From IMG/VR virus record IMGVR_UViG_3300042673_002246: a stretch of 64,000 nt of DNA. One strand, written 5' to 3'. Made by a program: the position numbers and the translations under genes. The stretch is from a virus. This document shows, piece after piece, positions 12,652 through 43,532 of the stretch. Under the pieces are notes generated by a model. It saw nothing but the letters and a program-made list of their open reading frames with translations, searched no databases and had not been told where the DNA came from. Within the stretch, counting starts at the first letter, position 1, and each line of letters opens with the position of its first letter.

Positions 12652-13674
12652 ATGGCCGGTACAGGTGTAAGACTATTTCTATCTGGTGATACTGCATATG
12701 CAGCAGACATAAACACGTATCTCATGGACCAGGTGGTTGCGCGTTTCGCGACCACAGCAGCGCGCGATGCGGCGTTTGGCGACGGAATTCCCGTATCCCA
12801 AGGAGGAAGCGGCAAGCCAGCGCTGTCCGAAGGCCGCATTTGTTATATCGATGAATTGAACTTAATTCAATATTACAACGGCGCTTCGTGGCAGGACTCA
12901 GCGCAATTTACGGTTGGAGATGGTGCAATCACCACGCAAAAGCTAGCTGCCAACTCTGTAACATCTGACAAAATTGCCCCAGGCACGGTAATAGCAGCAG
13001 ATATTGCTGCTGGGACAATTACCGCAACAGAACTAGCAGATGGTGCTGTTACATCAGGAAAGATTCTTGACGGAACGATTGTCAACGCTGATATAAACAC
13101 TTCGGCGGCAATTGCATACAGCAAGTTGAACCTAGCAACATCTATCGTTAATGCTGATATAAATGCTTCTGCTGCGATAGATAAAACCAAAATATCTGGA
13201 ACAGCTGTGACCCTGGCTGACACTGGAGTGATTACCAGTGCGATGATTGAAAACGATTCGATTGTCAATGCCGACATCAAGAGTAACGCAGCAATTGCTT
13301 ATAGCAAATTGAGTCTGTCTGGTTCGATTACGACAACAGATTTAGCTACTGGTGCAGCTCGCTCTGGGTTTAGGTCACCGATTGTTGCTCAGCAAGGTGC
13401 GACACACACAATTGCGGCTTCCGATGTTGGTGGTTTAGTGGTGCTTTCGTCTTGTACTTCGGTTGTCATACCAACCTCTGATGCAACATTTACAGTTGGG
13501 GACAGAATAGATTTTCTTCAAACAGGCACACAAGTAGTTACATTTAGCGCCACATCCCCACAAACCGTTGGCGGGTTTGACGCTCAATTAAAACTTGGAG
13601 GACAGTTCGCAGTTGCAACACTTGTAAAGTATGCAGCAAATACATGGGTTCTAGTTGGAAATATAACGAGTTAA
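12652..13674 (+). CDS. Tail fibre protein with shared C-terminal domain (cassette 1 fibre)
   Basis: Actinophage-type N-terminus (AADINTYLMDQ...FATTAARD), IxxADI repeats, C-terminus ATLVKYAANTWVLVGN. Confidence 0.7.
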   Translation: MAGTGVRLFLSGDTAYAADINTYLMDQVVARFATTAARDAAFGDGIPVSQGGSGKPALSEGRICYIDELNLIQYYNGASWQDSAQFTVGDGAITTQKLAANSVTSDKIAPGTVIAADIAAGTITATELADGAVTSGKILDGTIVNADINTSAAIAYSKLNLATSIVNADINASAAIDKTKISGTAVTLADTGVITSAMIENDSIVNADIKSNAAIAYSKLSLSGSITTTDLATGAARSGFRSPIVAQQGATHTIAASDVGGLVVLSSCTSVVIPTSDATFTVGDRIDFLQTGTQVVTFSATSPQTVGGFDAQLKLGGQFAVATLVKYAANTWVLVGNITS

Positions 13675-13675
13675 C

Positions 13676-14776
13676 ATGATTCCTGGAATAGTTGAGGCAG
13701 GTGGGGGCAGAATCCTCCCAACAACGTCTGACGATTTTAATCGCGCAAACAGCACAGACATTACTGCTGCTGGAAAAAAATGGACAGAGACAAGTGGTGA
13801 CTGGGCAATCACCAGTAACCAACTGACCACCTCAACCGCCGCAGCTAGCTACCCGATAGCCACATTGCGAACTAATACAAAAAACGCAACAGTTAAAGTT
13901 GACAGAGCAAACGGGGATGGATGGGGTGCTGCATTCTGGGTGGTGGACCAAAACAACTGGTTTGCCGCCAACACGGAGATGACGCAATCAAGTGTTCAAA
14001 ACCCTGCTACTAGCGGCAGCTATGAACAGCAAACATTTACCGGAAACACGTGTAGCGGTGGGAAAATATATAACGGCGACAGTTCGTTCCCCCCGTTTGG
14101 TGGAACTTGCTACGACGTAGTTTGTATTAGTTACTCTGGGGGAACACCTGCAACGTATGAATATCGAACACCATCAGGACTGTCTTGCTATCAGGATGGA
14201 ATCCATTGTGGTGGTGGTTATGTTCTCTATGGCTATCAAGCCGGAGACGAATACCTCTGCGGTGGAACGTGTTGCTGCTCACTCGTAATGACAGACCCAG
14301 GAACGCCAGGGACATGCAATGAATATCAAATTCAAAACTGTTGTATATATCTTGATGCAACTGACCCTGGTTGCCCTGGTGCCTGCAATGGACAAAGCCC
14401 AAGACCGCAGTACACGACCACGACGGTATACTACACAAATCCTGAAACAAGAACCTGGACATACTCGCAAAAAGCAATAATAAGAAAAGCCGTTGCTGGA
14501 ACGGTTTCGATTGTTGCAAATACGAACACAGTCACATCTACCGAGACGGTTGCCGCGGCTGGGGCTGCTGGTAACCCAACAAGACCAACTTCACTAACCG
14601 TAACACTAGTCGGTGAAAGTATATCAATTTCAGCACCAGGGGCAGCAGGCGGAACAATAACAGGAAGCCATACCGCAACGGGGGCCAATAGAGGCAAAAA
14701 ACATGGCGTTTCTATTGCTCCAGCGACAGTCTCTCAGTCAAATGCTGTCGACAACTTTGTGTATACTAAACCGTAA
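13676..14776 (+). CDS. Putative fibre tip protein, beta-sandwich with Cys-rich insertion
   Basis: Starts MIPG; SDDFNRAN...DNF frame; 14 Cys concentrated in the central ~120 aa. Confidence 0.55.
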   Translation: MIPGIVEAGGGRILPTTSDDFNRANSTDITAAGKKWTETSGDWAITSNQLTTSTAAASYPIATLRTNTKNATVKVDRANGDGWGAAFWVVDQNNWFAANTEMTQSSVQNPATSGSYEQQTFTGNTCSGGKIYNGDSSFPPFGGTCYDVVCISYSGGTPATYEYRTPSGLSCYQDGIHCGGGYVLYGYQAGDEYLCGGTCCCSLVMTDPGTPGTCNEYQIQNCCIYLDATDPGCPGACNGQSPRPQYTTTTVYYTNPETRTWTYSQKAIIRKAVAGTVSIVANTNTVTSTETVAAAGAAGNPTRPTSLTVTLVGESISISAPGAAGGTITGSHTATGANRGKKHGVSIAPATVSQSNAVDNFVYTKP

Positions 14777-14934
14777 TGAGCGACACAGCAGTTAATTACG
14801 GGGAAGAGCGATTGAAGATATGCTTGGGGTGCCCGCGTTTATTCAGGCCGACAATGACCTGTAAGGAATGTGGTTGCTTCATGAAAGTAAAAACGAGACT
14901 TAAAACGGCAAAGTGCCCAATAGGAAAGTGGTAA
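14776..14934 (+). CDS. Small CxxC...CxxCGC...CPxxKW protein (DUF6171-like), 52 aa
   Basis: Manually translated: MSDTAVNYGEERLKICLGCPRLFRPTMTCKECGCFMKVKTRLKTAKCPIGKW. TAATG overlap with the upstream gene; paralogue at 38589-38816. Confidence 0.85.
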   Translation: MSDTAVNYGEERLKICLGCPRLFRPTMTCKECGCFMKVKTRLKTAKCPIGKW

Positions 14935-14938
14935 AAAC

Positions 14939-15271
14939 ATGGCTTTTACAATAATCACAACAACAAATGGTCCAGTGGTTAAGAGTGGTACGAATCACTA
15001 CACGCTCCACGATATTGCTGCATGTATTGATATTGCTGAAACAAACGCAACTTTTGTTGACGAAATGGGCACTCACATTGCCAATGAGTTGATGGCCGCA
15101 GCCACGGAATGGACGGAAGCATTTGTCGGCGGACTGCAACCATCACAGAACAAAGTTGTTTACTACATGAACTCTGGGGCGCATTTCAAAATGTTTGTCC
15201 AGCAGTATGATATGTACAAGCGGAACATGGAAAATCCACCGCCTGCGAGCGCCTCGGTTGTCGTTGAGTAA
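14939..15271 (+). CDS. Hypothetical protein
   Basis: 110-aa ORF tightly packed in the operon. Confidence 0.6.
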   Translation: MAFTIITTTNGPVVKSGTNHYTLHDIAACIDIAETNATFVDEMGTHIANELMAAATEWTEAFVGGLQPSQNKVVYYMNSGAHFKMFVQQYDMYKRNMENPPPASASVVVE

Positions 15272-16319
15272 AGCAGTCCAATTTCCTCCATTTTTTGGGA
15301 GCACGCCAAAAATTGGTAAATCAGAAGTACTAGAAATTGATTCAATTAATGACGTTCATCTTGGCGGCGGTGTTGTCTGTTTCAGAAATGCATTTAATCC
15401 GAACAAAGAACTCATTATGCCATGGGCTGACAGAAATGCACAGCTGGCGCATGAGCAAAGATGGAAATATCACACCGACAGCTCCGGTCAGAAATATGCG
15501 GTAAACGAGGACGGCAATAAATTCTCAATTGAACAGATAGAGGAAGTTCCAATTCGTGTTCTTCAGCCGGTACAGCAAGGCACCGAGCCGGAAGTTGTTG
15601 AGATATTCCAGAACTGGGAAGACCAAATTTATAAGTGCTTAATTAAGTACATTCACAGATTCCCATTTGCTCTCGGAACAATATGGTGGAGGAGCAGGGG
15701 GCACCTTCTGCGATACGACGAGGGTGATTATTTGGGAATCCATAACGATAATGACTCAAACTATAGGGCCACAAACGGTGAAAGATTTGTCCCCAAGGGG
15801 CAGGTGCAGATGCGTCAAGTTGTTGCCGTAATGGCATACATCAATGACTGCGTATCGAGCACATCCGAATTGGATGGAACAAACTACATAGGCGGGGAGT
15901 TGTTTTTTCCATACCTTGATATTGAGCACCAAGCAAAATCCGGAGATATAGTAATTTTTCCTTGCAACTTTATGGCCACCCATGGCGTCCACACTGTTAC
16001 GCATGGGAAACGATACGGGTATCTAGAGTTCTTTTCACAAGGTTCATCACATGATGACGTCTTAATAAATGTGTCGGAGCCAGATGCTGTTGATGACTGG
16101 TGTCGTCCGCATTGGATTGACTCCCTGTATGACGATTACTCCCTCTATGCAAAACACTCAGATTACGGTCAATCGGATTTTGATGAAGCAAGAACAAATC
16201 CTGTTTATCAGAATCGGGCGCTTGAGGGGGAAAACGGTTTATCTCGGCCGTATTACGCGAGCGATGTAATAAAAGAAACAGAAAACAGGGGTAAAGTTTA
16301 CCCCGACCAACTTATATAA
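15264..16319 (+). CDS. 2OG-Fe(II) oxygenase (P4H-like)
   Basis: HNDND...GGELFFP...HGVHTVTHGKRY. Start uncertain (TTG 15264 vs ORF-track 15195). Confidence 0.85.
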   Translation: MSKAVQFPPFFGSTPKIGKSEVLEIDSINDVHLGGGVVCFRNAFNPNKELIMPWADRNAQLAHEQRWKYHTDSSGQKYAVNEDGNKFSIEQIEEVPIRVLQPVQQGTEPEVVEIFQNWEDQIYKCLIKYIHRFPFALGTIWWRSRGHLLRYDEGDYLGIHNDNDSNYRATNGERFVPKGQVQMRQVVAVMAYINDCVSSTSELDGTNYIGGELFFPYLDIEHQAKSGDIVIFPCNFMATHGVHTVTHGKRYGYLEFFSQGSSHDDVLINVSEPDAVDDWCRPHWIDSLYDDYSLYAKHSDYGQSDFDEARTNPVYQNRALEGENGLSRPYYASDVIKETENRGKVYPDQLI

Positions 16320-16340
16320 GCAGTCCCTGAAGCACCATAT

Positions 16341-17171
16341 TCATCTCGGTTCCTGCCAAGATGGATAGTCACCTCTTGGCTTATCAAGTGAATTGTTCAT
16401 TGTTAAGTGTTTTCCAAAAGTATTGATTCCATGTATGAATCCCAAATGCTCTGGAAATTTTAAATCGATGCATATGTCTCTCAGTTTTCCGTCGCGAATC
16501 TGTTCCCAAATATAAACCATCGTTTCAGAGCCAGTTCTTCCATCCACGTAGAATTTTTCTGCTATTAGGTTTAGCATTTCATCTTCCCATTTGGGATTTT
16601 TTGGTGTTATTTTGTCTTGAAACAGATGCTCTTTTGGCGGCGACATACTGCCAGACGCAATGAGCCGATTTACGTATTTTGCTGGAGCGGCAGATACGTG
16701 GACATCAAAAAGCCCGCCCGACAACAATGCCGCTGCTTCCCGTGCTGATGGTCCTGAAAGAATCATGAGTCGATGCTTTTTATCAGTTAAAGCTTCATCT
16801 TCAATGGGGTACCCCCTAATTGCTCCCTCACAGTAGTTATCTGTTAGGCCAGAAACGATGGTCCTCCACTGGTGTTCTTCCTCGTCTCCATTCAAAGAAT
16901 TTAAGTCAATATACAAACCTTTGTATTTGTTTATTAATACATTTCTTGGTGTTTCCATGGCTGCATCATTTGTGCCTATGCAGATAATCGCCCCACACTC
17001 ATCAGCAAGCTTCTCCAAAGTGAATAAATTATTTATTCCGCAATCCGATGCTCTGTGTATAGTCTCCATTGACCTATCCATCGATGCGAAAAATACAGAA
17101 TGTCCTGCTAATTGCAATGACTTTGCGATTGTTGCACCCATTTTCCCGGGAGAATTAATTCCAATTTTCAT
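16341..17171 (-). CDS. NAD(P)-binding Rossmann oxidoreductase (6PGD/3-hydroxyacid dehydrogenase-like N-terminus)
   Basis: MKIGINSPGKMGATIA...YIDLNS. Confidence 0.65.
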   Translation of the reverse strand: MKIGINSPGKMGATIAKSLQLAGHSVFFASMDRSMETIHRASDCGINNLFTLEKLADECGAIICIGTNDAAMETPRNVLINKYKGLYIDLNSLNGDEEEHQWRTIVSGLTDNYCEGAIRGYPIEDEALTDKKHRLMILSGPSAREAAALLSGGLFDVHVSAAPAKYVNRLIASGSMSPPKEHLFQDKITPKNPKWEDEMLNLIAEKFYVDGRTGSETMVYIWEQIRDGKLRDICIDLKFPEHLGFIHGINTFGKHLTMNNSLDKPRGDYPSWQEPR

Positions 17172-17180
17172 TGATACGCC

Positions 17181-17957
17181 TCACTTTATTGGACCAACAG
17201 GAACAAACTGTTGGACCGAATTTGCTGAATGACTAGTAATAAAATCAAGATGATACGAAAAGTTCTGCAATTCTTGTCTTTTATGTTCTGCCGGTGGGCT
17301 TATATCGAGAACGCCGTGGCAGAACCAGGAAAGATAAGCAAATCTCTCTCCCGTTTCTATTGGTGTTATCTCATGGCAACCAGAAAAGTTAGAAGGGTAC
17401 ACAACGATTGAACCAAACTTGGGGAATACGGTTATGCCCCATGGGCGGAAACTTAGATTTCCACCTGTGTATTTATCGTTTAGGAAAATGCTACACGTAA
17501 GAGTATTTGCTATTGGTGCCAATGAGATTGGAGTCAAACCATCATCTGCGTATGGGAGATTTGCGTCGGAATGTGGTCCTATCATTTGTCCCGGAAGATA
17601 CCTAATTACATGACCCCTGGTCCGCCATTTTACGGCACCTGCGGCAGATGGGAATATCTCCAAGTACTTACTGACACAGTTGGTTCCGGAGTCCTCCAAA
17701 TCGCTCAAGGTTTGAAAATCTTTTTTTTCTATTCCCAAATGATTTACATTTAAGTATCTATGTGGGGCAATCTTTGCTTGTTCTAAATTGTGGTTATACC
17801 CACCAGAATTTTTTAAATTCTCATTACCCAAATTTGAGTAACCCTCATGGTTGGTGGACAGGAGGAGGTTTTCAAGATACTTATCGACATCTTGTTGTGT
17901 TGACTTTATTGCATTGTCAAACTGAACAATTCCATTTCCTAGATGCGTTATGTTCAT
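17181..17957 (-). CDS. 2OG-Fe(II) oxygenase (P4H-like)
   Basis: HSDAN...YTGGNLSF...HEITPIETGERF. Confidence 0.85.
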   Translation of the reverse strand: MNITHLGNGIVQFDNAIKSTQQDVDKYLENLLLSTNHEGYSNLGNENLKNSGGYNHNLEQAKIAPHRYLNVNHLGIEKKDFQTLSDLEDSGTNCVSKYLEIFPSAAGAVKWRTRGHVIRYLPGQMIGPHSDANLPYADDGLTPISLAPIANTLTCSIFLNDKYTGGNLSFRPWGITVFPKFGSIVVYPSNFSGCHEITPIETGERFAYLSWFCHGVLDISPPAEHKRQELQNFSYHLDFITSHSANSVQQFVPVGPIK

Positions 17958-18865
17958 TAAAAACCGTCCGAAACCAGAGACATGGCATAGAAGTGTTTAT
18001 CTGGCCCACAATTTTGTATGTATTCTCTAAAGTCTTTGCGCAAGTTGGGTAGGTAAACGTTTGTAGAAACCTTTGCAATTTCTGGTTCCTTAACAGGGTC
18101 TGCGATGTGCTCGTGATATTCGCTATTTGGGCTTCCGTGTGAATACCAACCCAAATATGAATATCTCTCCCCCCTGGAAACTGGAAGCACTTCATGTGAT
18201 GCTATGTAATTTGATGGGAACATTAGTATGTCCCCCTTTCGTGGTTTGTAATTTATATTTAGTTCGTTAAAGAAATGGTGTCCTCCAGCAAATGAATTTA
18301 CAGCATCATCGCCAGATTCATCGCAATCGTTAATGTAGACAATGCAGGATAGTGTATTTCTTGTTGCTAGCTGGTCGGATGGGTGTTCGTATCCATAGAC
18401 GTAGTCGGCGCTTGTGTCTGAATGGACGCCAAGGTATTGGCGATTACCCACAACTCCAGATGGTGGAGATGAATACCTAACGATATGCCCCTTAACCTTC
18501 CACCAAATATTTTTGTAAGAAAGGGGATATCTGAGCATGTATTTGAGCAAATACCTATCTTTCGAGTCCTCCCAAAACTCAAGCATTTCCCTAAACTTAT
18601 CTGAACATTGCTGATGGGCGGACGAACACCTACTTGGCATCGATGCAAATGTGTCGTAATCAAAAATGTAGCCGCTCATATTTACTAGCGCTTTTTCGCC
18701 AGTTTCGGGATGAATTGTTTCGGTGTACATAGCGGAGGCGTCTCTGTCGACAAGCTCCCTACAGGAATTAATAGCAAATTCCCAGTCAAAGTCGATAGCC
18801 GACGGAAACAGACAAACACCAGCACCAAGTTCCATCATTTCTACGTCATTAAACTTATTAACCAT
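17957..18865 (-). CDS. 2OG-Fe(II) oxygenase (P4H-like)
   Basis: HSDTS...FAGGHHFF...HEVLPVSRGERY. Start probably ATG 18865. Confidence 0.85.
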   Translation of the reverse strand: MVNKFNDVEMMELGAGVCLFPSAIDFDWEFAINSCRELVDRDASAMYTETIHPETGEKALVNMSGYIFDYDTFASMPSRCSSAHQQCSDKFREMLEFWEDSKDRYLLKYMLRYPLSYKNIWWKVKGHIVRYSSPPSGVVGNRQYLGVHSDTSADYVYGYEHPSDQLATRNTLSCIVYINDCDESGDDAVNSFAGGHHFFNELNINYKPRKGDILMFPSNYIASHEVLPVSRGERYSYLGWYSHGSPNSEYHEHIADPVKEPEIAKVSTNVYLPNLRKDFREYIQNCGPDKHFYAMSLVSDGF

Positions 18866-19691
18866 GGTCATTGCTCCGAGACCTGTGCGCTGCTGCTCTT
18901 GCTGGTGGCATTCCGGAATACTTGCCGTTGATGTATTCATCATAGTCTTCAGTGATTGAGCTCAACCAAACTTGTCCACCTGTGTCTGAAATCTCCAACT
19001 GTGGGTTTATCCCTTTTTCTTGAGATTCTGAGCCCTGGGCAAACCAGGCAAGGTACGTGAGTCTTTCTCCACTTGTGATAGTGGATATCTCATGGGCGGC
19101 TACGTAATTAGCCGGAAACAAAAGTATGTTTCCTTTTTGCGGTTTGATTGCAACGTCTGCATACGGAAATAACATTTCACCGCCACAAAACGCTCCTGGC
19201 GCTGGGGTTTCCGACCAGTCGTTAATGAAAACTATTGCACTCAGAACGTTTCTAGTTGCGTGTTCCTTGCTGGGCATTTTTCCATATCTGTAGTTCACAT
19301 CATTATCCGAATGAAGCCCCAGTGAACCACCGGTTGAATAAGAGAGGATATGTCCAGAAGTTCTCCACCACAGGCAGCTAAGGATTGCTGGAAACATTTC
19401 AATGTACTGCAAAAGACAGGAATATATCGCTGGCTCAAATTCGTTGTATATTTCGCTACCCAACCCTTGTAGTCTGAGTGGAGCTTTTGCCATGTCCTGC
19501 AGGCTATAAATAAAACCGCCCTGATTTAGCGCGTGGATTGGATTTCCGTTTTCATCTAGGACAACGGTAAAATTTTCTTCTATTGCCTTTTGCTTCAACT
19601 TCTCTATCTTGTCTGAAAATTTACTGAATTCGATGTTCGCAGCGGCCACAAACTCGATTATTCCATGACCATGATTTATCACGGAGCTCAT
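18858..19691 (-). CDS. 2OG-Fe(II) oxygenase (P4H-like)
   Basis: HSDND...GGEMLFP...HEISTITSGERL. Confidence 0.85.
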   Translation of the reverse strand: MSSVINHGHGIIEFVAAANIEFSKFSDKIEKLKQKAIEENFTVVLDENGNPIHALNQGGFIYSLQDMAKAPLRLQGLGSEIYNEFEPAIYSCLLQYIEMFPAILSCLWWRTSGHILSYSTGGSLGLHSDNDVNYRYGKMPSKEHATRNVLSAIVFINDWSETPAPGAFCGGEMLFPYADVAIKPQKGNILLFPANYVAAHEISTITSGERLTYLAWFAQGSESQEKGINPQLEISDTGGQVWLSSITEDYDEYINGKYSGMPPARAAAHRSRSNDHG

Positions 19692-20302
19692 AGCAGGGAC
19701 CTTATGGCTTGTTTTATTGAATTATCCTCCCCGAATAAAGCCTGCTCCGATATCGGTGATTCCGCCCAATTAAATCGACCAACATAAACGCCTTCTCGTG
19801 ATGTTAAGAATTTTTCCCAATTGTTCGGAACCCTCATTGCAACTTCCCCCGCTCTATTTCTTCCAGCAGCCGCAGCGGCACTCAAGTCGGCCATGCTGTC
19901 GTTAAAATTTCTTATTAGCTCTCCATTTAGGAATGAGTAAACGTCATGCCTATTTTGCCCGTTAACGTCTATTTTTTCTGCTATCGGAAATGTAACGTAG
20001 GGATAATTTTTTTTTATATTTTCAAAAATTTCCAAATTGTCGCCATTCTCCATGTTCCCAAATTGGTTGCATGGGTAACCGACGACGCTAAAACCGCTAT
20101 CACAAAATTCTTCATGAAGTTTTTGCAATTCCCAAAAATTTTTAGCTGTTCTTGCATAAGACCATAGACGACTGCACTTTGGCGAGTATCCGGTCTTTGA
20201 TACAACGTTTACATGGAGGAGCACTTTACCCCTTAACTGTCCAAGCAAATTTGGACAGCCATCCAAAGAGCTTATTTCTATATCAAAAATCGATTTACTC
20301 AT
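19688..20302 (-). CDS. Glutathione peroxidase-like protein (atypical active site)
   Basis: GKVLLHVNVVSKTG, GYPCNQFG, KIDVNG, NWEKFL. Start MSKSIFD at 20302. Confidence 0.85.
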   Translation of the reverse strand: MSKSIFDIEISSLDGCPNLLGQLRGKVLLHVNVVSKTGYSPKCSRLWSYARTAKNFWELQKLHEEFCDSGFSVVGYPCNQFGNMENGDNLEIFENIKKNYPYVTFPIAEKIDVNGQNRHDVYSFLNGELIRNFNDSMADLSAAAAAGRNRAGEVAMRVPNNWEKFLTSREGVYVGRFNWAESPISEQALFGEDNSIKQAIRSLL

Positions 20303-20594: not shown

Positions 20595-20601
20595 GGCATC
20601 G

Positions 20602-21874: not shown

Positions 21875-21877
21875 AAT

Positions 21878-34708: not shown

Positions 34709-37700
34709 TTAGAACGCTCCCATGATAGACGCTACGTTGACGTCGTCGGTGCTAGTCGAGCGAGATACAAGCACCCATGAACCGTTGTAATACACAAATA
34801 CTTCGTTTGTCGTGTTTTTAAACCAGAACTGTCCGTTGGCCGGATTTTCTGGAGAGCTAGACCCAATGACTGCACCAATTCCAGAAGCACCAATTTCAAT
34901 CCAGTAGGAATCGTAATAAACAAACGTTATGGCCGAGTCCGTCTCAAACCAGAAGTCTCCATCGTCTGGGGCTGCTGGAGGGGTAGTCCCCAGCGTCATT
35001 TTTGCGCCCTGGTCAATTATTTTATAGGTGCTTCCATCTCTGGTGGATTCCCATCTATCCAGCGTTTCGTTCCATCTAATTTCAACGCTTGCGCTTGAAC
35101 CTCTGTCAATTTTTATTGCTCCGTTAAGAGTTGGAGCGCCAACCGTGCCAGCATTAAGAACAATCTCGCCGCTGGCAACATTTAGGGATGCTTGATTAGT
35201 TACTTCCTGGTTTGTTGCAAAAAGGTTAGTTACGACAAGTGTGTCGAATTGCACGGATGCACTAGTACCGACAGCTTGTCCAATGGAAATTGTTGGAGTG
35301 GCAGATTCCCCAGAGTTGTCCGTAATCGTTATACCTGTTCCAGCAACCAGATTGGCTACATAGTTGCCAGTTGTGTCGGTTCCCATTACTACGGAGTTTG
35401 GTTGAATCGCTGTCGACATTGTCACATTGCCAAGGTCGGTGAAAGTCACCGAACCAGAAACATCGCCAGAAAGCGTCAGAATTGGCGATACACCAGTAAT
35501 AACTGGGCTAGTTAAAGTTTTGTTTGTTAACGTATCCGTGGTATCAGTACCGACAAGAGTCGTTGTTGCATCTGGGAAAGATATAACCCTGTCTGCTGTT
35601 GGGTTTGCAAATGTGATTACTGTTTCAAATTCGTCTGGCGTTGAGCCTTCAAAAGTAATGCCTCCGCCAAATTTGACTTCCGGGCTTCCAGACGAGATTG
35701 ACGAAGAAGGGGTTTCGACGGGTGTGTATCTGAACTGATACGCAGACGAGACTTGGGCAACAGTAAAGCTGCCGTTGTAGCCTTCTTGTGTCGCTCCAGA
35801 AACCGTAATCCTTGCTCCGACATAAAGGCCGTGCTCGGAAAGAGTATTCACGGTGGCAAGATTGGTTCCAGCGTTATAGGTAAGGTTTCCGTTGACGGTT
35901 AGGTTTGTATTGCCTATTGAAAGGCCAGCAAACTGTGGTGAATCTCCAGAGCCAACAGATTGACCAATACTTATAGTTGGTGTTCCTGCTTCCTGTGCGA
36001 CGCCGTTTGTCAGCGACACGCCAGTTCCGGCTATAACCGAGGCAACATAGTTTCCGCTCGTATCGGTATTGAGGTCAACCAAATCAGGGACCCAGGCTGT
36101 CCCATTGTATTTCAGGAATTGATTAGCAGTTGGCGTTGGTGCAGTGACGTCCGAAAGGCCGTCTATACCATGATTGGATATTGAAGAAACTGTTGCGGCG
36201 TTTCCGGATATGCTTCCGTCCACAGAGCCAGTCACATTTCCAATCAAATTTCCAGTTACGTTTCCTAAAACGTTTCCTGTTACGTTTCCAAGAAGGTTTC
36301 CGCTAACGCTTCCAGTAACATCTCCTATGACATTTCCGGTTAGGTTTCCTGTCACGTCTCCGACATGCAAACCAGTAGACTGTCCGGCCAGTGTTCCGAT
36401 AACATCTCCGGTTAATGTTCCATAGAACCCACCACTAGCACTACCGTCTAACGCCCCAAAAACCGTTCCTGTTAAATCACCAACAACATTTCCGGTATGT
36501 GTGCCGATTAGATTTCCGTGAAATTCGGAGGCATATATATTGTTATTGGCGGTTATATCTTCAAAGAAAATCGGATTAAGCAAATCTGCTTTATCGTTTA
36601 TTTGTTCTTGAATATTTGCGCTCGCGCTACTGAGGTAATCGAGCTGGAGTTTGGTCGTTGTTAATTCAAATAGCTTGTTCAGGTCTGACGTCGTTGCTTG
36701 GAGGCCTGTTATGTCTTCGACTCCAAGACTTATGCTTGCTGAACCATCAAACAGTTTTGTTCCAATAAACACTGGCTGGGTAATTGAATTTGCCTGTTCG
36801 GCAATCCCATTTAAATAGCCAGTAATTCCTGCAAAAACAACGCTTGCGCTTGGTGCGACATCCTGACCAATTGAAAGCTGATTTCCAAATTTTGTAATAC
36901 CAGTTCCTGCGAGAATTGGTGCTGTTCCGGAAAATTGTGTAAATGATATTGCGTCTGTTCCAATGACATGTTCGCCATCGGTTCCGGTGCCAGAAGTAAA
37001 TACAAGAAATCCTTGATTTGCATTTGCCGAACCAGTCGAGACGTATAATGCGTCTCCTGCGTGTGGAGTTGCGAAATGAGTACTACCATCAAAGTCATCA
37101 GAACGAGTAAGCACCCACGGAACGGAGACGCTTCCCTGAGTTGTTACATCGTAAACTCCGTTATGGACAGCGTTTGCTTGATTTTTTACAAGAATTCTAT
37201 TTCCAGTTGAAGCATTAGTTCCATCCACGACAAGTCGCGCATTTGCTCCAGCAGTTAGAGTTGCCCCAATTCCATCAATGCTGTTGTCATAGGTCGGGTT
37301 GTTTGGCAAAGCTGCATCAGTGGCAAGTGTGGCAAATTCATGCCAGTTAATTGACGCTGCTATTCCGTCAACATAGGCTTTTGTTGCGACATGTTTATCA
37401 TCGACTGGCAGGTTGTTAATTGTTGCTTGAGCAAATGTTGGTGAAGCAGTTGTTGCAACGCTCTGGGGGATTGAAATTGTTGGCGTCGAACCAGAACCTG
37501 AGTTTCCGGTTATTGTTAGGCCTGTGCCAGCAACAAGGGACTGAACATATGATGTGCTGTCTAGTGAACCGTAAAAATAATCAAGCTCAGTCCAAGAACT
37601 AGTCCCATCACCAAGCTTTATCTTGCCAGTGTCGGACTCTAGGCCTATTTCTCCAGCGGAGAGTACTGGGTCAACCGATGTCCATGTAGCTGCGAGGTCA

Positions 37701-37729
37701 CGACGGAAAAGTATCTTTTTATACGCCAT
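34709..37729 (-). CDS. Tail fibre protein with Mtd_N/hyaluronidase-like N-terminus and G-x-[VL]-x-G repeats
   Basis: RRDLAATWTSVDPVLSAGEIGLESDTGKIKLGDG; ATKAYVD; GNVTGNL repeats; DTTGNYV modules. Confidence 0.75.
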   Translation of the reverse strand: MAYKKILFRRDLAATWTSVDPVLSAGEIGLESDTGKIKLGDGTSSWTELDYFYGSLDSTSYVQSLVAGTGLTITGNSGSGSTPTISIPQSVATTASPTFAQATINNLPVDDKHVATKAYVDGIAASINWHEFATLATDAALPNNPTYDNSIDGIGATLTAGANARLVVDGTNASTGNRILVKNQANAVHNGVYDVTTQGSVSVPWVLTRSDDFDGSTHFATPHAGDALYVSTGSANANQGFLVFTSGTGTDGEHVIGTDAISFTQFSGTAPILAGTGITKFGNQLSIGQDVAPSASVVFAGITGYLNGIAEQANSITQPVFIGTKLFDGSASISLGVEDITGLQATTSDLNKLFELTTTKLQLDYLSSASANIQEQINDKADLLNPIFFEDITANNNIYASEFHGNLIGTHTGNVVGDLTGTVFGALDGSASGGFYGTLTGDVIGTLAGQSTGLHVGDVTGNLTGNVIGDVTGSVSGNLLGNVTGNVLGNVTGNLIGNVTGSVDGSISGNAATVSSISNHGIDGLSDVTAPTPTANQFLKYNGTAWVPDLVDLNTDTSGNYVASVIAGTGVSLTNGVAQEAGTPTISIGQSVGSGDSPQFAGLSIGNTNLTVNGNLTYNAGTNLATVNTLSEHGLYVGARITVSGATQEGYNGSFTVAQVSSAYQFRYTPVETPSSSISSGSPEVKFGGGITFEGSTPDEFETVITFANPTADRVISFPDATTTLVGTDTTDTLTNKTLTSPVITGVSPILTLSGDVSGSVTFTDLGNVTMSTAIQPNSVVMGTDTTGNYVANLVAGTGITITDNSGESATPTISIGQAVGTSASVQFDTLVVTNLFATNQEVTNQASLNVASGEIVLNAGTVGAPTLNGAIKIDRGSSASVEIRWNETLDRWESTRDGSTYKIIDQGAKMTLGTTPPAAPDDGDFWFETDSAITFVYYDSYWIEIGASGIGAVIGSSSPENPANGQFWFKNTTNEVFVYYNGSWVLVSRSTSTDDVNVASIMGAF

Positions 37730-37911: not shown

Positions 37912-37973
37912 ACGGCCAATTATCTCACAAGACGGTCTTTAATCGGCTCTAATCTGTTTTTTTCGCTAGCTTT

Positions 37974-38561
37974 TTACCACCAGTTGGCGATTGAGTACTT
38001 GATGCCACTGATTACTGGTTTTGCCTCATGCCTGAATGGTGCTCCAGATGGAAAAATTACAACATCCCCTGCTACTGGCTGATATGTGAAATTTAAATCC
38101 TGAAAATACAGTTCGCCACCTTCGTAATTGTCGTTTAGGTATGCAACTGCAGAGGCGTAGCGTCTGGTTTTTTCACCATCATCAAGGTGAGATACATAAT
38201 GCTCACCAATTGCATATTTTAGTATTTGGTATCCATTTGTGGATTGGAACTTGATTGAAAGACCAAATTTTGCCGCAAAGTTTTGGACACAAGGAAGGAT
38301 GTATTCGTGAATTTTATTCGCCAGCATAACCTCTGCCGACGACTCGTCTCCCCTTTGAGTTGGCGTTGGAGTGAACATCAATTGGTTTGTTCTTACTTCA
38401 GAAACAAATACCTTCCCCTCGGTGTCAATTACTGTCGATTTAGTCCAATCGCCTCGGCTGTCTTTCGAGATGCTTAACAGCTCAGAGGCTTCTATTATCT
38501 CAGAGGGGTTGATAATTACATTTCTGTAAACACATACGCCATTCACATTGATGTACTTCAT
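37974..38561 (-). CDS. 2OG-Fe(II) oxygenase (P4H-like)
   Basis: HLDDG...NDNYEGGELYF...HEAKPVISGIKY. Confidence 0.9.
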   Translation of the reverse strand: MKYINVNGVCVYRNVIINPSEIIEASELLSISKDSRGDWTKSTVIDTEGKVFVSEVRTNQLMFTPTPTQRGDESSAEVMLANKIHEYILPCVQNFAAKFGLSIKFQSTNGYQILKYAIGEHYVSHLDDGEKTRRYASAVAYLNDNYEGGELYFQDLNFTYQPVAGDVVIFPSGAPFRHEAKPVISGIKYSIANWW

Positions 38562-38588
38562 TGCAAAACCCTTACATTCTGGTTGGGG

Positions 38589-38816
38589 CTACCACTTTTG
38601 CAAGGGGCACGTTGCTTCTTGTATCTTCACCTTTAACTTCATGAAGCATCCGCATTCTCTACACTGGCTGGTGACCGCAAGCAGGCTTGGACATTCTCGG
38701 CAAATCGAAAATCTTCTTTCTGCCTCTTCATCTGTGGTTTTTTCTATGTTTGGGTTAACAACATCCCACGGGCGTGTATCTCCAAGTTTTTTCTTCCACT
38801 CTTGATAGGCAGACAT
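38589..38816 (-). CDS. Small CxxC...CxxCGC...CPxxKW protein (DUF6171-like)
   Basis: ICRECP...CRECGCFMKLK...CPLQKW. Confidence 0.85.
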   Translation of the reverse strand: MSAYQEWKKKLGDTRPWDVVNPNIEKTTDEEAERRFSICRECPSLLAVTSQCRECGCFMKLKVKIQEATCPLQKW

Positions 38817-38817
38817 C

Positions 38818-39348
38818 TTACGGCTCTACTGTAAAATCTTTTTCAACCGTATAAAAAACATTGCTCAAGTGGGTCAGGAACCCTGCTCCAGCTTCGTTTA
38901 CTGGAACATCTAACACCAATGGGACAGTCAGCGCAGCACGTTCCGCTCTAGGCATGGCTCTAAATTCTTCCACTGTGTATCCGTACGCATGAGCTTCTTC
39001 GTTAATGAATTTCTCTTCGATGCGAAGAGCCACCTGAGTTGCAATTCCCTTCCCTCTGTGGTCTGGATGAACCAGCATCAAAAGAGGATGACGAACGCCT
39101 GCGTCGTCAACGTATCTAGCAACCACGCAAAGAAGCAGGCCGTCTCCGTCTTGTCTGTAGAGCGTGAAATAAACATCTCTAGGATTATCGTCGCCAAAAA
39201 CAGATGGAATTTTTGTTGGTTCAATAAAATCCCTATACCCAGGAATACCAAATTCACCGAATTTGTTTTCCCAATTAAACCAACCTTGGAATGTGTATTC
39301 TGGCTCTGTTGGTTCTCTTGGTGTCCAGATTTCTTCAGCGTTGCTCAT
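38818..39348 (-). CDS. GNAT-family acetyltransferase-like protein
   Basis: VHPDHRGKGIAT acetyl-CoA motif A. Confidence 0.7.
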   Translation of the reverse strand: MSNAEEIWTPREPTEPEYTFQGWFNWENKFGEFGIPGYRDFIEPTKIPSVFGDDNPRDVYFTLYRQDGDGLLLCVVARYVDDAGVRHPLLMLVHPDHRGKGIATQVALRIEEKFINEEAHAYGYTVEEFRAMPRAERAALTVPLVLDVPVNEAGAGFLTHLSNVFYTVEKDFTVEP

Positions 39349-39384
39349 GATTAAATCCTACTGCATTCCTGATTGTTTGTTCGA

Positions 39385-40356
39385 CTAACAACAAATTGGG
39401 CCAAGTTTAGGGTCTATAAAGCATCCACCGCAGCATATTCCGCAATCAGGAGGAGGAGCAGGAGGCGGCGAAGGAGGCGGCGAAGGAGGCGGCGAAGGAG
39501 GCGGCGAAGGAGCTGGTGGTGTCACATAACCGCAAACGCCGTTTCTATAAGCTCCGTTGTAGCCACCCTCACCAGGGCAAGCTCCTCCACCACAAGTTCC
39601 GTATATGTAGTACTCGTAGCTCATTGTTCCGTCGCATGTCCAACCAAAACCGGCTGGGTCTAAATGTGAAAACTGACCGTATTGTCTTCTTGCTACACCA
39701 TCGCACGAGCATGGCGGAGGAGGTGGTGGCCCTGGGACCACTGGTGTTGCTCCACTTGAAACAGCTGACCTTGTACTCTGACCAGTAGCGTTGACTGCAA
39801 TAACTGTAAAATAGTATGCGGTTCCATTGCTTAATCCAGTAACGGTATAAGACGTGGATGTCGAACCAGTGTTTACAGAGTTTGACCAACTTTGAATAGC
39901 AGCAGATGATGTTGACCAGTAAACAATATAACTAGTAATAGCTGCACCGTTATTTGCTGGTTCGCTCCACGATACAGTTACTTGACCATTACCAGCAGAA
40001 ACAGTTGGTTGAGCTGGGGCAGTTGGAACTCCTGCAACAAGTGATGAAGATGAAGTTACAGCAGATAAAGATTCAACAGAAGACTGAGACTCAATTGTGA
40101 CTGCTGAAAACGTGTAGCTAACGCCATTGCTTAATCCAGTCAGAGACATGGACCCAGACGTTCCACTTGTGGCTTCAGAAACAGAACTTACACCAGTATT
40201 TGAAGTAACCCTGAATTTAACTGACCCAGATTTACCTTTGTAACCAGTGTGATTGACGACTATGTCGCTTGCACCTCCCAGGGCGTTTGGTACAACAGAT
40301 ATCGAGTCTGGTGGGTCAATAAACTTTCCACCACTGGCTTGATTGCCCGGAATCAC
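39385..40356 (-). CDS. FN3 virion protein with Pro/Cys-rich C-terminus (cassette 3 tip)
   Basis: Starts MIPG; two FN3-like domains; PPPPPP, (SPPP)4 and 12 Cys. Confidence 0.75.
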   Translation of the reverse strand: MIPGNQASGGKFIDPPDSISVVPNALGGASDIVVNHTGYKGKSGSVKFRVTSNTGVSSVSEATSGTSGSMSLTGLSNGVSYTFSAVTIESQSSVESLSAVTSSSSLVAGVPTAPAQPTVSAGNGQVTVSWSEPANNGAAITSYIVYWSTSSAAIQSWSNSVNTGSTSTSYTVTGLSNGTAYYFTVIAVNATGQSTRSAVSSGATPVVPGPPPPPPCSCDGVARRQYGQFSHLDPAGFGWTCDGTMSYEYYIYGTCGGGACPGEGGYNGAYRNGVCGYVTPPAPSPPPSPPPSPPPSPPPAPPPDCGICCGGCFIDPKLGPICC

Positions 40357-43300
40357 GATGCCGCCAAGTCACCTATAACAAACCACTCGTTTGCATTTTC
40401 TGTTTTGACTATTGTGCATGAAGAGTATCTTGCTCTTAGGAAAAGACCAGGAGTTGCCAAGAGCGTTACTCCAGCGCCTGCAAGAATTCTTGTCTTACCA
40501 GTTCCGCGCTGAACAATGGTGATGCTCGTACCAGTCACAAAAGCAACACTCGAAGCCGGTGGAACGGTCAGGTCATTGGCGGAGCTTGAATCCATAATGA
40601 TGATTGTTTCGGCAGCATCACCAGCAGCAAGTGTGTAGTTGCCGGCCTTTGCACTGAGTGTTTGAATACCCGTTGTTGAAACTGAGGCAGTAGAACCTTC
40701 GCCCTGTGTGTGGGAGATGGAAATTCCATTTCCAGCAGACACGTTGAGCATGTAGTTGCCAGTTGTATCTGTTCCAAGTTCAATACCGTTTGCCTTAATG
40801 GTAAATGGACCATCGCTGTAATCAAATTTACTGCCGTCGTACTGGATTATTCCTGGAGCGGTTGTGCTGGCCAAGCGATGCGTAGCAGCAGTTTTACCTG
40901 TTACTCGACCATAGGAATCGACTTCAACTCCCGTGAATATCATGCTGGCAGAATTGTTATCTTGGAAAGAATTGGATACTGATACGGTTGCAAGGTCGAT
41001 GTCGTCTGTGCTTACTACAATTCTTGAAGAATCAGCGGTTCCAATATTCAGTGCCGTTCCACTGAACGCCATTCCGTTACCCGCCATAACAACCTGTGCA
41101 GCATTGAATGCAGTGTATGTGATGTTGTCAGTTCCAATAACAATTGGACTTGTTGAACTGTTATTTATAAAACCATACCCAGCATTGGTATTGCCACCCA
41201 TAACAAAGCAGAAGTCTCCAGAAGCCATTTCTCCAGATATGCTATTGTCAGCATCTGTTGCTCTTGTTATTACCCAAGGAGCACTTGCGCTGCCGACTGC
41301 CGTAATAGTGTAGATACCATTTTGTTTTGAGTCAGTCTGCGATTTAACAAGAATTCTGCTTCCAACAACTACCGAGGCTCCATCAATAGTACCAATTGAA
41401 CCATTTGTTGCTTTTGTTAGAGTTGCACCAACGCCAGCAGTTCCGTTGTTGTATGTTCCAGCGAGGTTACCACTTGTTGCAGCAACCACTGATGCATGGA
41501 AGTTAATACCTGACGCGGCATTATCTACATACTGTTTTGTTGCTGCTTGAAGTGCTAAAGATGGGTCTGCGGCGAGTGTGACTGTTCCTGTTGCGGTAAC
41601 GTTTGAAAATGTGACAGAAGCAGAAGTGCCTACATCCTGTCCGATTGCAATGGTTGCGTTTGAACCTTCACCTGGAGTATGCGTGATTGTTACGCCAGTG
41701 CCCTGGGTAATGTCGGACATATAGTTTCCAACAGTGTCTGTTCCAAGGTTGATTGCGTCGTTGACCCATAGGGCTGAGGCGCTGTTGTACCGCAAGAATT
41801 GACCGTCGGTCACACCGTTGATTTTTACGTTGTGGAGTTCTTCAAGTTCGTATCCGTTTTGGCACTTGACATACATAATGCCGTTTCCATTGTTCGCCCT
41901 AGTGACAACACCAATAAAAACTAAGTGGTTTGGAGCGGTTGGTTTTGTTGTTGTAAAAGTTCCAGCCGTTGAGCCAAGCCAAAGAACATCGCCTGATGCA
42001 TAGGAGCCAAGAGACAGACCACTCACATATCCAAGTGTTGTTACTGCTACATCTGAACCTGCCGCCCCACCAACTGCAACAACTCCGACAGTTTTTGATG
42101 AAGTCGCTTCAGAGGAATTGGATGCTCTCTTTACAGAAGCCCTATCTCCAGCAGCCCCAAATAGATAAACTACTTCGCCGATACTCAAAGCATTTGCTTC
42201 AGCGTTCCTTGCATATGTAACAGTCGGGGCATACTCATTAACCCAGTTTGTTCCGTTGTAGGTTAATGACTGATGATTTAACGGGCTTGTGATTACAACA
42301 TCTGAAATTTCATCAAGGCTCACACCAGAGTTAACAACGCTTGCGCTGATGGTTATGTCTGTAGTTCCGTTAAAAGAAGCAGAACCGCTTAAGTCTCCAG
42401 CGAGCGAGATGGTTCGTGCGGTTTCTAACGCGCTTGCAGTAGACGCATTCCCAGTAACATCTCCTACGAGGTCTGCTGTTACATTTGCAAAAGTCACTGA
42501 AGCGGAAGTGCCAACAGCCTGTCCAATAGCAACCGTTGGACTTGAGCCTTCACCAGGAGTATGCGTTACCGTGACACCAGTGCCTGCGGTTAGGTCGTTT
42601 ACATAGTTGCCAGTTGTATCAACACCCAGGGCGATGCTGTTCGGCTGAAGCGTTGTTGAGATATTTACGCTTGCAGAACCATCGAACATGACCGAGCCAG
42701 AAACATCTCCACTCAATGCGATTATGTGGGAACCAAACAAATTTGAAACAGTGTCGTTGTACCAGTCAAGGCCGTCAAATGCTAAAACATCGCCAGCGTT
42801 TGCGTTGTCAATGTATACATTGTCCAGTTCTTCAACTGTTAGGAATTCTGGTGTGAGCGTTACCTGAATCCACGAACCTGAGTAATATGTATAAAGTTCA
42901 AGTTCGCTTGAGTTATACCAAAAGTCGCCGACTCTTATCTCGTCAGTAGGTTCCGTGTCAGAGACTGTAATGAAGTGGATTGTTTCGTTAATCCAAGCAG
43001 AAGCAGAGTTCTTGTAAACAAGGAAATCACCCTCTTCTACGTTGTTAATTGTTACATCACCAATGTCATTGAGGCTGTTGATTGTTGGTATTGACGCCCA
43101 CTCAACTCCAGCAGATGCTGAGCTACTTGCTTTTAGGAAGTAGCCTTCTGCTCCAACACCCAAACGAAGAAGATTGGTTCCATCAGTAACGAGCAAGTCG
43201 CCTTTGGTGGTGAGTTTGCTTACAAGTTCGTTTGCTTCGTCTGCGTCATTGGCGGTGAATACTGGGTAAATAACCGAACCAATTGGGTGCTCGGATGCGG

Positions 43301-43532
43301 TGGTGTCGTCTTGGGCTCTTGTCAGGGTTAGGGTTGAGCCAGAAATCGTTGCCAAACACTTTTCTTCATATATCGAAGATGGTCGGATTACTACGTAAAA
43401 CGGGATGCCAGCAATGGATGGCCATCCAGTTGTTGCCGCAATGTCAACAGTTGTGCCAACGTTCGTCAGCAGCGTTGTTGTCGTCGTGTTGCGCGCTGCA
43501 CCCGAATATTGTTTGCGTGTAAATGCTGCCAT
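40353..43532 (-). CDS. Long tail fibre protein with shared C-terminal domain (cassette 3 fibre)
   Basis: 1059 aa; DTTGNY modules, ATKQYVD; ends RARYSSCTIVKTENANEWFVIGDL. Confidence 0.75.
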   Translation of the reverse strand: MAAFTRKQYSGAARNTTTTTLLTNVGTTVDIAATTGWPSIAGIPFYVVIRPSSIYEEKCLATISGSTLTLTRAQDDTTASEHPIGSVIYPVFTANDADEANELVSKLTTKGDLLVTDGTNLLRLGVGAEGYFLKASSSASAGVEWASIPTINSLNDIGDVTINNVEEGDFLVYKNSASAWINETIHFITVSDTEPTDEIRVGDFWYNSSELELYTYYSGSWIQVTLTPEFLTVEELDNVYIDNANAGDVLAFDGLDWYNDTVSNLFGSHIIALSGDVSGSVMFDGSASVNISTTLQPNSIALGVDTTGNYVNDLTAGTGVTVTHTPGEGSSPTVAIGQAVGTSASVTFANVTADLVGDVTGNASTASALETARTISLAGDLSGSASFNGTTDITISASVVNSGVSLDEISDVVITSPLNHQSLTYNGTNWVNEYAPTVTYARNAEANALSIGEVVYLFGAAGDRASVKRASNSSEATSSKTVGVVAVGGAAGSDVAVTTLGYVSGLSLGSYASGDVLWLGSTAGTFTTTKPTAPNHLVFIGVVTRANNGNGIMYVKCQNGYELEELHNVKINGVTDGQFLRYNSASALWVNDAINLGTDTVGNYMSDITQGTGVTITHTPGEGSNATIAIGQDVGTSASVTFSNVTATGTVTLAADPSLALQAATKQYVDNAASGINFHASVVAATSGNLAGTYNNGTAGVGATLTKATNGSIGTIDGASVVVGSRILVKSQTDSKQNGIYTITAVGSASAPWVITRATDADNSISGEMASGDFCFVMGGNTNAGYGFINNSSTSPIVIGTDNITYTAFNAAQVVMAGNGMAFSGTALNIGTADSSRIVVSTDDIDLATVSVSNSFQDNNSASMIFTGVEVDSYGRVTGKTAATHRLASTTAPGIIQYDGSKFDYSDGPFTIKANGIELGTDTTGNYMLNVSAGNGISISHTQGEGSTASVSTTGIQTLSAKAGNYTLAAGDAAETIIIMDSSSANDLTVPPASSVAFVTGTSITIVQRGTGKTRILAGAGVTLLATPGLFLRARYSSCTIVKTENANEWFVIGDLAAS

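Follow-up and report, generated by a model that had tools for sequence, protein, structure and literature searches.

A proposed modular tail-fibre tip system with accessory genes matched to tip chemistry in an uncultured phage

In T-even phages, the long-fibre gene gp37 is followed by a separate adhesin gene, gp38. Another known case concerns the chlorovirus PBCV-1 which, in the accounts available of the original work, encodes a prolyl 4-hydroxylase (P4H) together with Pro-rich repeat open reading frames (ORFs) of its own (Eriksson et al. 1999, cited in PMC9301287 and PMC7019647). Here we analyse a stretch of viral DNA of 64,000 nt (IMG/VR record IMGVR_UViG_3300042673_002246, hereafter the window), in which three tail-fibre genes end in a common domain, each is coupled to a small tip gene, and the tip genes are followed by accessory genes that include P4H-type 2-oxoglutarate (2OG)-Fe(II) oxygenases. 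The nearest relative, an IMG/VR contig of 153,913 bp that is rated 100% complete (G001), is collinear with the window and 91-98% identical to it; the source of the window is an uncultured ~154-kb phage with what is best explained as a modular tail-fibre tip system.

We propose that the fibre ends are organised as cassettes whose accessory genes are matched to the chemistry of the tip: the oxygenases, together with a DUF6065 protein, would hydroxylate the Pro-rich tail of the tip, and the small protein DUF6171 would assist its Cys knob. Judged from the gene sequences, we give this reading a probability of roughly one half. In the literature that we searched we were not able to find a published description of such a system, nor any mention of PPFF or PFFP repeats in connection with phages, or of DUF6065 or DUF6171.

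Fibre-tip pairs and the shared fibre domain

Fibre 1 (12652-13674, + strand, 340 aa) is the last gene of the tail/baseplate operon. Fibre 2 (30837-31637, - strand) has 266 aa if read from a TTG start and 258 aa if translation begins at ATG 31613; fibre 3 (40353-43532, - strand) has 1059 aa. All three end in a shared domain of ~100 aa, which in fibre 1 occupies the C-terminal ~110 aa. BLASTP aligns this domain between fibres 1 and 2 with an E of 2e-22, and between fibres 2 and 3 with an E of 6e-24 (49% identity over 98 aa); fibres 1 and 3 are linked via fibre 2 only. Fibre 1 also has PHROG tail-fibre and minor-tail matches, with a profile (HMM) match at residues 227-340. Each fibre gene is directly followed by a tip gene, at gaps of +1 nt (13674/13676) and +3 nt (30837/30833) and with a 4-nt overlap (40353/40356). 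A first-pass annotation of the window had described the common domain, the tip gene directly after each fibre and the unusual composition of the three tips, and all of these descriptions hold.

Tip 1 (13676-14776, + strand, 366 aa) begins with MIPGIVEAGGG and carries 14 Cys within residues 126-237; it is not Pro-rich. Tip 2 (29589-30833, - strand, 414 aa) begins with MEAIKDSGGKK, has no Cys, and consists of fibronectin type III (FN3) domains followed by a C-terminal (PPYF)3(PPFF)8-PPGFK, in which the repeat spans residues 366-409 and is written in varied codons. Tip 3 (39385-40356, - strand, 323 aa), which uses a GTG start followed by IPGNQASGGK, combines FN3 with a P6 run, 12 Cys and (SPPP)4. 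The Pfam fn3 model matches tip 2 with an E of 2e-17 and tip 3 with an E of 2e-16; tip 1 had no Pfam match, and a PHROG scan gave no family for any of the three tips.

The repeat tail of tip 2 is under strong constraint. Relative to G001, the tail (29589-29744, 52 codons) has 4 nt changes and 0/52 residue changes, as compared with 221/1086 nt and 37/362 residues that differ in the FN3 part of the same gene. The tail is therefore far more conserved than the rest of the gene, at the DNA level included.

The shared fibre domain is widespread. Among cultured phages it is present in 255 records, chiefly of Gordonia minor tail proteins, and IMG/VR has at least 435 loci with it. In 78 of 80 loci examined it forms the very C-terminus of the fibre, and in most loci the gene after it starts at -31 to +67 nt. 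An AlphaFold2 (AF2) model of fibre 2, built from a 20-row alignment, reached a confidence (pLDDT) of ~93 for residues 165-266. The best fold match of this part was the C-terminal domain of the Pa223 capsid spike (Z 14.1, rmsd 1.9, 97 residues aligned), followed by the KP1 baseplate protein (Z 10.5), residues 80-182 of CBA120 TSP4-N (Z 9.8), CpaA (Z 8.9) and StcE (Z 6.7), with T4 gp9 and gp10 found by Foldseek. The model thus predicts a beta-sandwich of the XD1 type, the fold of the gp9 middle domain, whose described homologues are gp9, gp10, CpaA and StcE (PMC8825819).

This fold bears on the role of the domain, which the first-pass annotation had taken to be a docking adaptor for the tip. That assignment is not supported as it was written: the docking domains are XD2 and XD3, while XD1 is a spacer in TSP4, gp10 and gp9 (PMC8825819). 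Docking nevertheless remains a plausible role, argued from gene adjacency, because the shared domain stands at the chain end in these fibres, with a free distal face. Glycan binding, the function of the XD1-type fold in CpaA and StcE (PMC8825819), is an equally open possibility. A complex prediction for fibre 2 residues 150-266 with tip 2 residues 1-100, both given as alignments, scored 0.00, which is evidence neither way.

Accessory genes and tip chemistry across environmental phages

Of the IMG/VR loci with the shared domain, 80 were fetched blind to tip type and searched with the 12 oxygenases of the window. This yielded 181 oxygenase ORFs, nearly all of them 3' of the fibre and on the same strand. 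Tips were clustered at 70% identity, which gave 37 clusters with at least 4 kb of downstream sequence. All 8 clusters of Pro-only tips were followed by an oxygenase and none by DUF6171; among 10 clusters with both Pro and Cys features, 8 had an oxygenase and 6 had DUF6171. No oxygenase followed any of the 7 Cys-only clusters, 4 of which have DUF6171, or any of the 12 clusters with neither feature, among which DUF6171 occurred once. Oxygenases therefore follow 16/18 Pro-type clusters against 0/19 others, and DUF6171 follows 10/17 Cys-type clusters against 1/20 others; the corresponding Fisher p values, 7e-6 and 7e-4, are inflated because the loci are related to one another. One oxygenase-positive tip without PPFF was counted as Pro-type because of its poly-Pro runs (P8 and P7).

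A second retrieval used only a degenerate DNA pattern for (PPFF)4 and returned at least 119 viral stretches. Among the matches listed, an oxygenase lies within 3 kb downstream in 69 of the 83 informative viral loci, and in 38/41 of those whose repeat is C-terminal. In the first batch, an oxygenase was found upstream in only 2/32 loci, and a shared-domain fibre ended just upstream of the repeat protein in 32/42. In prokaryote genomes (596 Gb) the same pattern occurred in only 10 stretches, every one on a contig of a metagenome-assembled genome (MAG), and the five MAG contigs with the fibre domain in view beside the repeat protein have the same layout as the phages. These five (L211 and L213-L216), which show the fibre and PPFF-tip layout, are labelled Verrucomicrobiales, Gammaproteobacteria, Cyclobacteriaceae and Acidibacter, and oxygenases are present where the downstream DNA suffices (L211, L213, L215). 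The taxon labels are unreliable as host calls because the contigs are probably phage DNA binned into MAGs.

Over ~200 loci, the fibre domain was counted in 124, oxygenases of the 26656 type in 105, of the 25412 type in 102 and of the 28059 type in 63, DUF6171 in 43 and the glutathione peroxidase (GPx)-like gene in 30. As judged from contigs of up to ~93 kb, on which fibre and tip are followed first by oxygenases/DUF6065 and next by ribonucleotide reductase, the module is retained in different genomic surroundings. The linkage is thus strongly conserved across genomes and specific to tip chemistry.

Tips at shared-domain loci very often consist of FN3 followed by a (PFFP/PPFF)n tail with up to 72 prolines. 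Such tails end in one of three ways: in a PPxFK C-terminus, in a Cys knob, or in a Hint/intein-like domain. The last of these, ~150 aa long, opens with a Cys right after the repeat and closes with HNK or HNS; it was seen in L026:2550-3956, L059:8893-10188, L040:4023-4922 and 4936-5763, and L051:6657-8063. The L026 copy matches PF14890 with an E of 3e-6, yet under the gathering score (27.5 versus 35.8 bits); in L059, L040 and L051 the domain is recognisable only by its opening Cys and its closing HNK or HNS. Because this domain follows the (PFFP)n tail, processing at the tail end appears to occur in some members, and self-cleavage would free the repeat as a C-terminus like the PPxFK ends of other tips.

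A Hint/intein-like domain in this position (as in L026, PF14890 E 3e-6) could also be taken to mean that the tip is a precursor in the sense of ribosomally synthesised and post-translationally modified peptides (RiPPs), whose repeat tail is tailored, cut and released as a peptide. We regard this as highly improbable. Hint cleavage would remove the domain past the tail and spare the tail, the tips, encoded behind fibres, have multiple FN3 domains, and Pfam and PHROG scans of the cassettes revealed no leader peptidase, recognition element or exporter. The "RiPP-like" pathway of the first-pass annotation is accordingly best kept as an analogy, given folded FN3 tips and, in the same scans, no leader, recognition element or release protease.

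The proposal that the accessory genes serve the tip can be examined further in the cassettes of the window. In cassette 1, tip 1 is followed by DUF6171 (14776-14934, + strand, 52 aa; PF19668, 31.4 bits versus a cut-off of 27), whose start overlaps the tip 1 stop (TAATG), and by a 110-aa protein of unknown function (14939-15271, + strand) that is conserved with this type of tip cassette. Homologues of tip 1 follow shared-domain fibres in L012, L014, L017 and L022; 103-104-aa homologues of the 110-aa protein occupy the same position in these four loci, and in L014 the homologue of tip 1 also has a DUF6171 gene after it. On ~95-kb contigs of contractile-tail type, this kind of cassette (fibre, Cys-rich tip starting with MIPG, DUF6171 in L014, 104-aa protein) occurs without a following oxygenase, which fits the rule that accessory genes follow tip chemistry.

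In cassette 3, which has a tip with both features, the - strand carries a GNAT acetyltransferase-like gene (38818-39348, 176 aa; PF00583, 24.6 bits versus a cut-off of 20.7), a DUF6171 paralogue (38589-38816, 75 aa; PF19668, 38.1 bits versus 27; phrog_13558, E 9e-16) and a P4H-like oxygenase (37974-38561; PF13640, 57.9 bits; Bacillus anthracis P4H, E 2.5e-5). The conserved CxxC...CxxCGC...C pattern is present in the DUF6171 proteins. Homologues of the GNAT gene were found in only 2 other loci among the ~200.

Cassette 3 has been exchanged as a block between the two close relatives. Window positions 37955-42747 are missing from G001, which has 926 bp there instead; the missing block takes in the distal three-quarters of fibre 3 together with tip 3, GNAT, DUF6171 and the P4H. 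G001 keeps only the first ~260 aa of fibre 3, which become a 554-aa fibre with an unrelated C-terminus. The boundary of the swap (37955) lies 19 nt past the P4H stop. Because fibre end, tip and enzymes are absent together, they act as a single exchangeable unit. The first-pass annotation had argued that the enzymes tailor the adjacent tip and are not generic auxiliary genes; the chemistry-specific linkage and the block swap favour that view on comparative grounds, the tailoring itself being putative.

The oxygenase island and its partner genes

The first-pass annotation had also assigned a separate set of enzymes to each of three cassettes. The three fibre-tip pairs stand, but cassettes 1 and 2 share a single set: because the + strand operon ends at 16319 and the convergent - strand operon ends at 16341, the two cassettes enclose one island (15195-29592, ~14 kb), which contains 11 of the 12 oxygenases. 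Every P4H-type paralogue of the complete G001 genome, 11 in number, likewise falls within 97350-110797, between both fibre-tip pairs. The island gene nearest to tip 1 (15195-16319, + strand; PF13640, 33.1 bits; HxD...H...K/R present; start codon uncertain) is a paralogue of the oxygenases at 17181-19691, with an E of 1e-45 to the 18858 gene. It had been read as the P4H of cassette 1. It is not conserved with that tip type, and because cassette-1-type loci elsewhere are without an oxygenase, it is best assigned to the central island.

Ten of the 12 oxygenases score over the Pfam gathering threshold (8 PF13640, 1 PF13759 and 1 PF05118), and two fall under the cut-off of 27 (21203-21874, 24.9 bits; 26656-27291, 22.8 bits). 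The HxD...H...R/K triad with its basic residue is found at the expected spacing in 10/12; the genes at 20602-21216 and 21878-22594 are of other 2OG families and have variant motifs. Sequence matches in the PDB include the B. anthracis P4H (5hv0/3itq, E 2.5e-5), P3H1 (E 7e-4), PiuC, and 4iw3, a Pseudomonas entry which we take to be an EF-Tu prolyl hydroxylase. From these motifs and matches, and with one gene of the Asp/Asn beta-hydroxylase type among them, the oxygenases look active and protein-directed.

A protein-directed island may nevertheless act on something other than the tip: on other virion parts, on host envelope proteins or on translation factors, its position simply reflecting the recombination-tolerant end of the late structural operon. 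The 4iw3 match points this way, and P4H-type enzymes have been reported to hydroxylate ribosomal proteins and EF-Tu. In addition, cyanophage oxygenases are numerous and have no known link to fibres (PMC3037559), our independent-contrast test (see below) is underpowered, and some PPFF loci (14/83) have no oxygenase nearby. We consider this explanation unlikely, since it leaves three observations unaccounted for: the split of 16/18 Pro-type versus 0/19 other tips behind the same fibre domain, the strict downstream position, and the joint loss of P4H and tip 3 in G001.

Within the island, all genes from 16341 onwards are on the - strand. Next to tip 2 lies a GPx-like protein (28654-29592, 312 aa; PF00255, 28.4 bits) that keeps the peroxidatic Cys (NVSAGCG), with a 4-nt overlap between its start and the stop of tip 2. 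The core of the array follows, with oxygenases at 28059-28643, 26656-27291, 26109-26711 and 25412-26131, called by Pfam, whose reading frames overlap, as array genes do with one another. Between the first two of these lies a sulfotransferase-like gene (27278-28066). The enzyme calls of the first-pass annotation gain Pfam matches for most genes; the sulfotransferase call comes from ESM-Atlas feature similarity to PF03567 clusters (0.97), and this gene had no Pfam or PHROG match. An apparent association of sulfotransferases with Tyr-containing repeats (Fisher p 8e-4) was rejected as confounded, all 15 positives belonging to the window's own sub-lineage.

The distal half of the island (16341-24667) comprises a weak NAD-binding-like gene, oxygenases at 17181-17957, 17957-18943, 18858-19691, 20602-21216 and 21203-21874 (by Pfam and motif check), an Asp/Arg beta-hydroxylase-type gene at 21878-22594 (by Pfam), a gene of unknown function at 22631-23356, five small ORFs and a GSHPx-family gene (glutathione peroxidase, 19688-20344, E 4e-26). 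The GSHPx protein, the stronger of the two peroxidase matches, has a Thr at the usual peroxidatic Cys/Sec site (NVVSKTG). Distal-half genes have homologues in the arrays of 11-22 other loci.

DUF6065 (24708-25415, - strand; PF19541, E 4e-43) is the commonest non-oxygenase partner of the arrays, present in 90 of the ~200 loci; its identity to the window copy drops to 26%. An AF2 model (pLDDT 88) matched dUTPase chains at Z 8-10.4 and with a Foldseek probability of 1.00, and the 14 representative chains at Z >= 8 were 13 dUTPases and pp71, a dUTPase-fold protein of HCMV (human cytomegalovirus). DUF6065 is thus predicted to be a jelly-roll beta-barrel of the dUTPase-like fold. The residues invariant in a 43-sequence alignment (R23, W25, M26, H33, A34, Y35, C37, P39, N44, G47, N113 and G221) are, as judged by eye, unlike the five dUTPase motifs. 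A PHROG scan gave no family for DUF6065, and a profile search, of which 120 of 1855 protein clusters were listed, gave among these no informative name and no independent bacterial context. In the ~93-kb lineage, a 256-aa ORF (L041:13112-13882) is a remote second DUF6065 (hhalign 94%), and each DUF6065 copy there stands after a 25412-type oxygenase, which suggests oxygenase-DUF6065 pairs, here in tandem.

The fold of DUF6065 raises another explanation, namely that the island is a block for auxiliary metabolism or nucleotide modification (2OG turnover, small-molecule oxidation, DNA or nucleotide chemistry) unrelated to the virion. Besides the dUTPase-like fold (Z ~10), it could draw on the array abutting ribonucleotide reductase in the ~93-kb lineage, on the GPx-like, weak NAD-binding and SDR-like (short-chain dehydrogenase/reductase) genes within arrays, and on the cyanophage 2OG oxygenases, which have been ascribed to 2OG/nitrogen-stress responses or DNA repair (PMC3037559). 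However, the Pfam families are protein-hydroxylase types (PF13640, PF05118) and not AlkB or TET/JBP, no dUTPase motifs were seen by eye among the invariant residues of DUF6065, and the island of the window sits between two fibre operons, far from replication genes. The match to tip chemistry would also go unexplained, and we hold this block to be quite improbable.

We were not able to find an isolate that carries the module, because tblastn against cultured phages gave no match for DUF6065 and only 5 weak matches for the oxygenase at 26656-27291 (marine single-cell viruses and Synechococcus phage S-SKS1). Megablast with 12652-20344 found no match to cultured phages at the DNA level. Promoter and terminator scans over 12000-47000 gave counts not above those of shuffles.

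Upstream of the cassettes, the + strand tail operon includes a 1570-aa tape-measure-like ORF and a baseplate-J homologue (9894-11384). Two further genes lie on the - strand. One of them (34709-37729) encodes a 1006-aa fibre that combines an Mtd_N domain with a long (GN[VL]TG)n stretch of Gly-zipper-like character; in the ~93-kb lineage an Mtd_N fibre likewise precedes a tip and oxygenase array (L220:5031-6818). The other (43556-46279), just upstream of fibre 3, encodes a repeat protein of 907 aa, built from GLHTAPRTASG(S/N)G-like units that recur dozens of times. It has no Pfam match and is 705 aa long in G001, so that copy number differs between near-identical genomes.

On the + strand, the region 47980-54193 contains a weak glycosyltransferase (GT)-like gene (47980-49071, E 1e-3), a PhyH-family 2OG dioxygenase (49068-49886, E 1e-18) and an S-adenosylmethionine (SAM) methyltransferase, and this trio directly precedes a 1212-aa FN3 protein with a hydrophobic N-terminus. 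The PhyH-type enzyme is of a family other than the P4H-type paralogues; it is possible that the trio is a second tailoring set. An endolysin (VanY and PG_binding, 54284-55051) comes after the 1212-aa protein. The sole host clue that we found is a whiB-family transcription factor at 59772-60122 (+ strand; PF02467, E 2.5e-15), which suggests that the host belongs to the Actinobacteria.

Proposed mechanism and comparison with known systems

In the mechanism that we propose, each fibre ends in the common beta-sandwich domain and is coupled in translation with a distal tip protein of small size, which may attach to that domain and would be the substrate of the neighbouring enzymes. Pro-rich tails, whether (PPFF)n or poly-Pro/SPPP, would be hydroxylated post-translationally by the P4H-type oxygenases with DUF6065 during late gene expression. 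For Cys-rich knobs, the 6-Cys DUF6171 protein most likely aids metal binding or disulfide folding. Tips with both features would carry both accessory sets, as in cassette 3, and the GPx-like, sulfotransferase-like and GNAT genes would be lineage-specific additions.

Several points weigh against this mechanism. The support comes from comparative genomics only. It is hard to see why a repeat of 4 residues should need as many as 10 different oxygenases, and tip 1 is not Pro-rich, yet has an oxygenase 419 nt downstream. The similarity of the oxygenases to P4Hs in the PDB is weak (best E 2.5e-5), and DUF6065, the most constant partner, has a predicted dUTPase-like fold that hints at nucleotides. 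An oxygenase within 3 kb is missing at 14/83 (PPFF)n loci, and DUF6171 at 7/17 Cys-type tip clusters. A maximum-likelihood tree of the fibre domain offers only 3-4 independent contrasts on supported branches; an independent-pairs test was consistent in direction in 2.4/3 and 2.9/4 contrasts, and a sign test cannot reach significance because the supported contrasts are too few. Finally, in the best-studied viral P4H system, that of PBCV-1, hydroxyproline went undetected in virions (PMC7019647).

A wider reading can be offered only tentatively. Many environmental phages may use enzymes to build their fibre tips: the (PPFF)n tail, free at the C-terminus of a small FN3 protein, would be heavily oxidised by a dedicated P4H-type array acting jointly with DUF6065, and certain lineages would add sulfation or acetylation; the modified sites would be Pro, possibly Phe or Lys. 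DUF6171 would help tips with Cys knobs, and fibre end, tip and enzymes would swap together as a host-range cassette.

If tailoring of this kind takes place, it would be the first case in which a receptor-binding organelle of a phage is tailored post-translationally by a pathway of its own, and a large group of uncultured phages would recognise their hosts through chemistry that is invisible in the gene sequence. It would account for much of the "cryptic" set of viral P4H and 2OG-oxygenase genes that are counted as auxiliary metabolic genes (AMGs), so that virome AMG counts for P4H would need reinterpretation. It would also place the (PPFF)n repeat, DUF6065 and DUF6171 in a functional context for the first time.

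The arrangement resembles T-even gp37-gp38 in that the gene right after the fibre gene encodes a small hypervariable distal protein, and that this protein and the fibre end are swapped together as a host-range cassette. The two systems are not known to be related in sequence, and the tips described here differ in having FN3 domains, Pro- or Cys-rich ends and dedicated enzymes. As in the extensin pathway of plants and algae (hydroxyproline-rich glycoproteins), the Ser-Pro3 repeats of tip 3 adjoin a P4H-type enzyme; unlike that pathway, the cassettes contain no hydroxyproline O-glycosyltransferase, the weak GT-like gene at 47980-49071 lying outside them, and the dominant phage motif is PPFF rather than the SPPPP of extensin. 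The resemblance to RiPP clusters is one of logic only, as the tips are FN3 proteins of 323-414 aa. With its XD1 fold, the shared fibre domain is similar to the branched receptor-binding complexes of gp10-type XD domains in T4 gp10 and gp9 and in CBA120 TSP4-N; in TSP4 and gp10, however, docking proceeds via XD2 and XD3, whereas here the XD1-type domain is at the very C-terminus (PMC8825819).

The closest parallel is PBCV-1, in which a virus-encoded P4H-type 2OG oxygenase likewise occurs alongside virus-encoded proline-repeat proteins, its presumed substrates (Eriksson et al. 1999, through the citing papers). PBCV-1 is a eukaryotic virus with, in those accounts, a single enzyme and no gene adjacency to the substrate; in the phages described here, arrays of up to ~10 oxygenases with DUF6065 stand directly after a fibre-associated (PPFF)n protein. 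Many paralogous 2OG oxygenases per phage genome are also known from T4-like cyanophages (PMC3037559) and from viral P4HA "AMGs" (PMC9301287), where their function "remains cryptic". Those genes have been interpreted as metabolic or DNA-repair genes, whereas the present locus, like hundreds of related ones, points to a concrete candidate substrate that is encoded next to the viral P4H-type enzymes.

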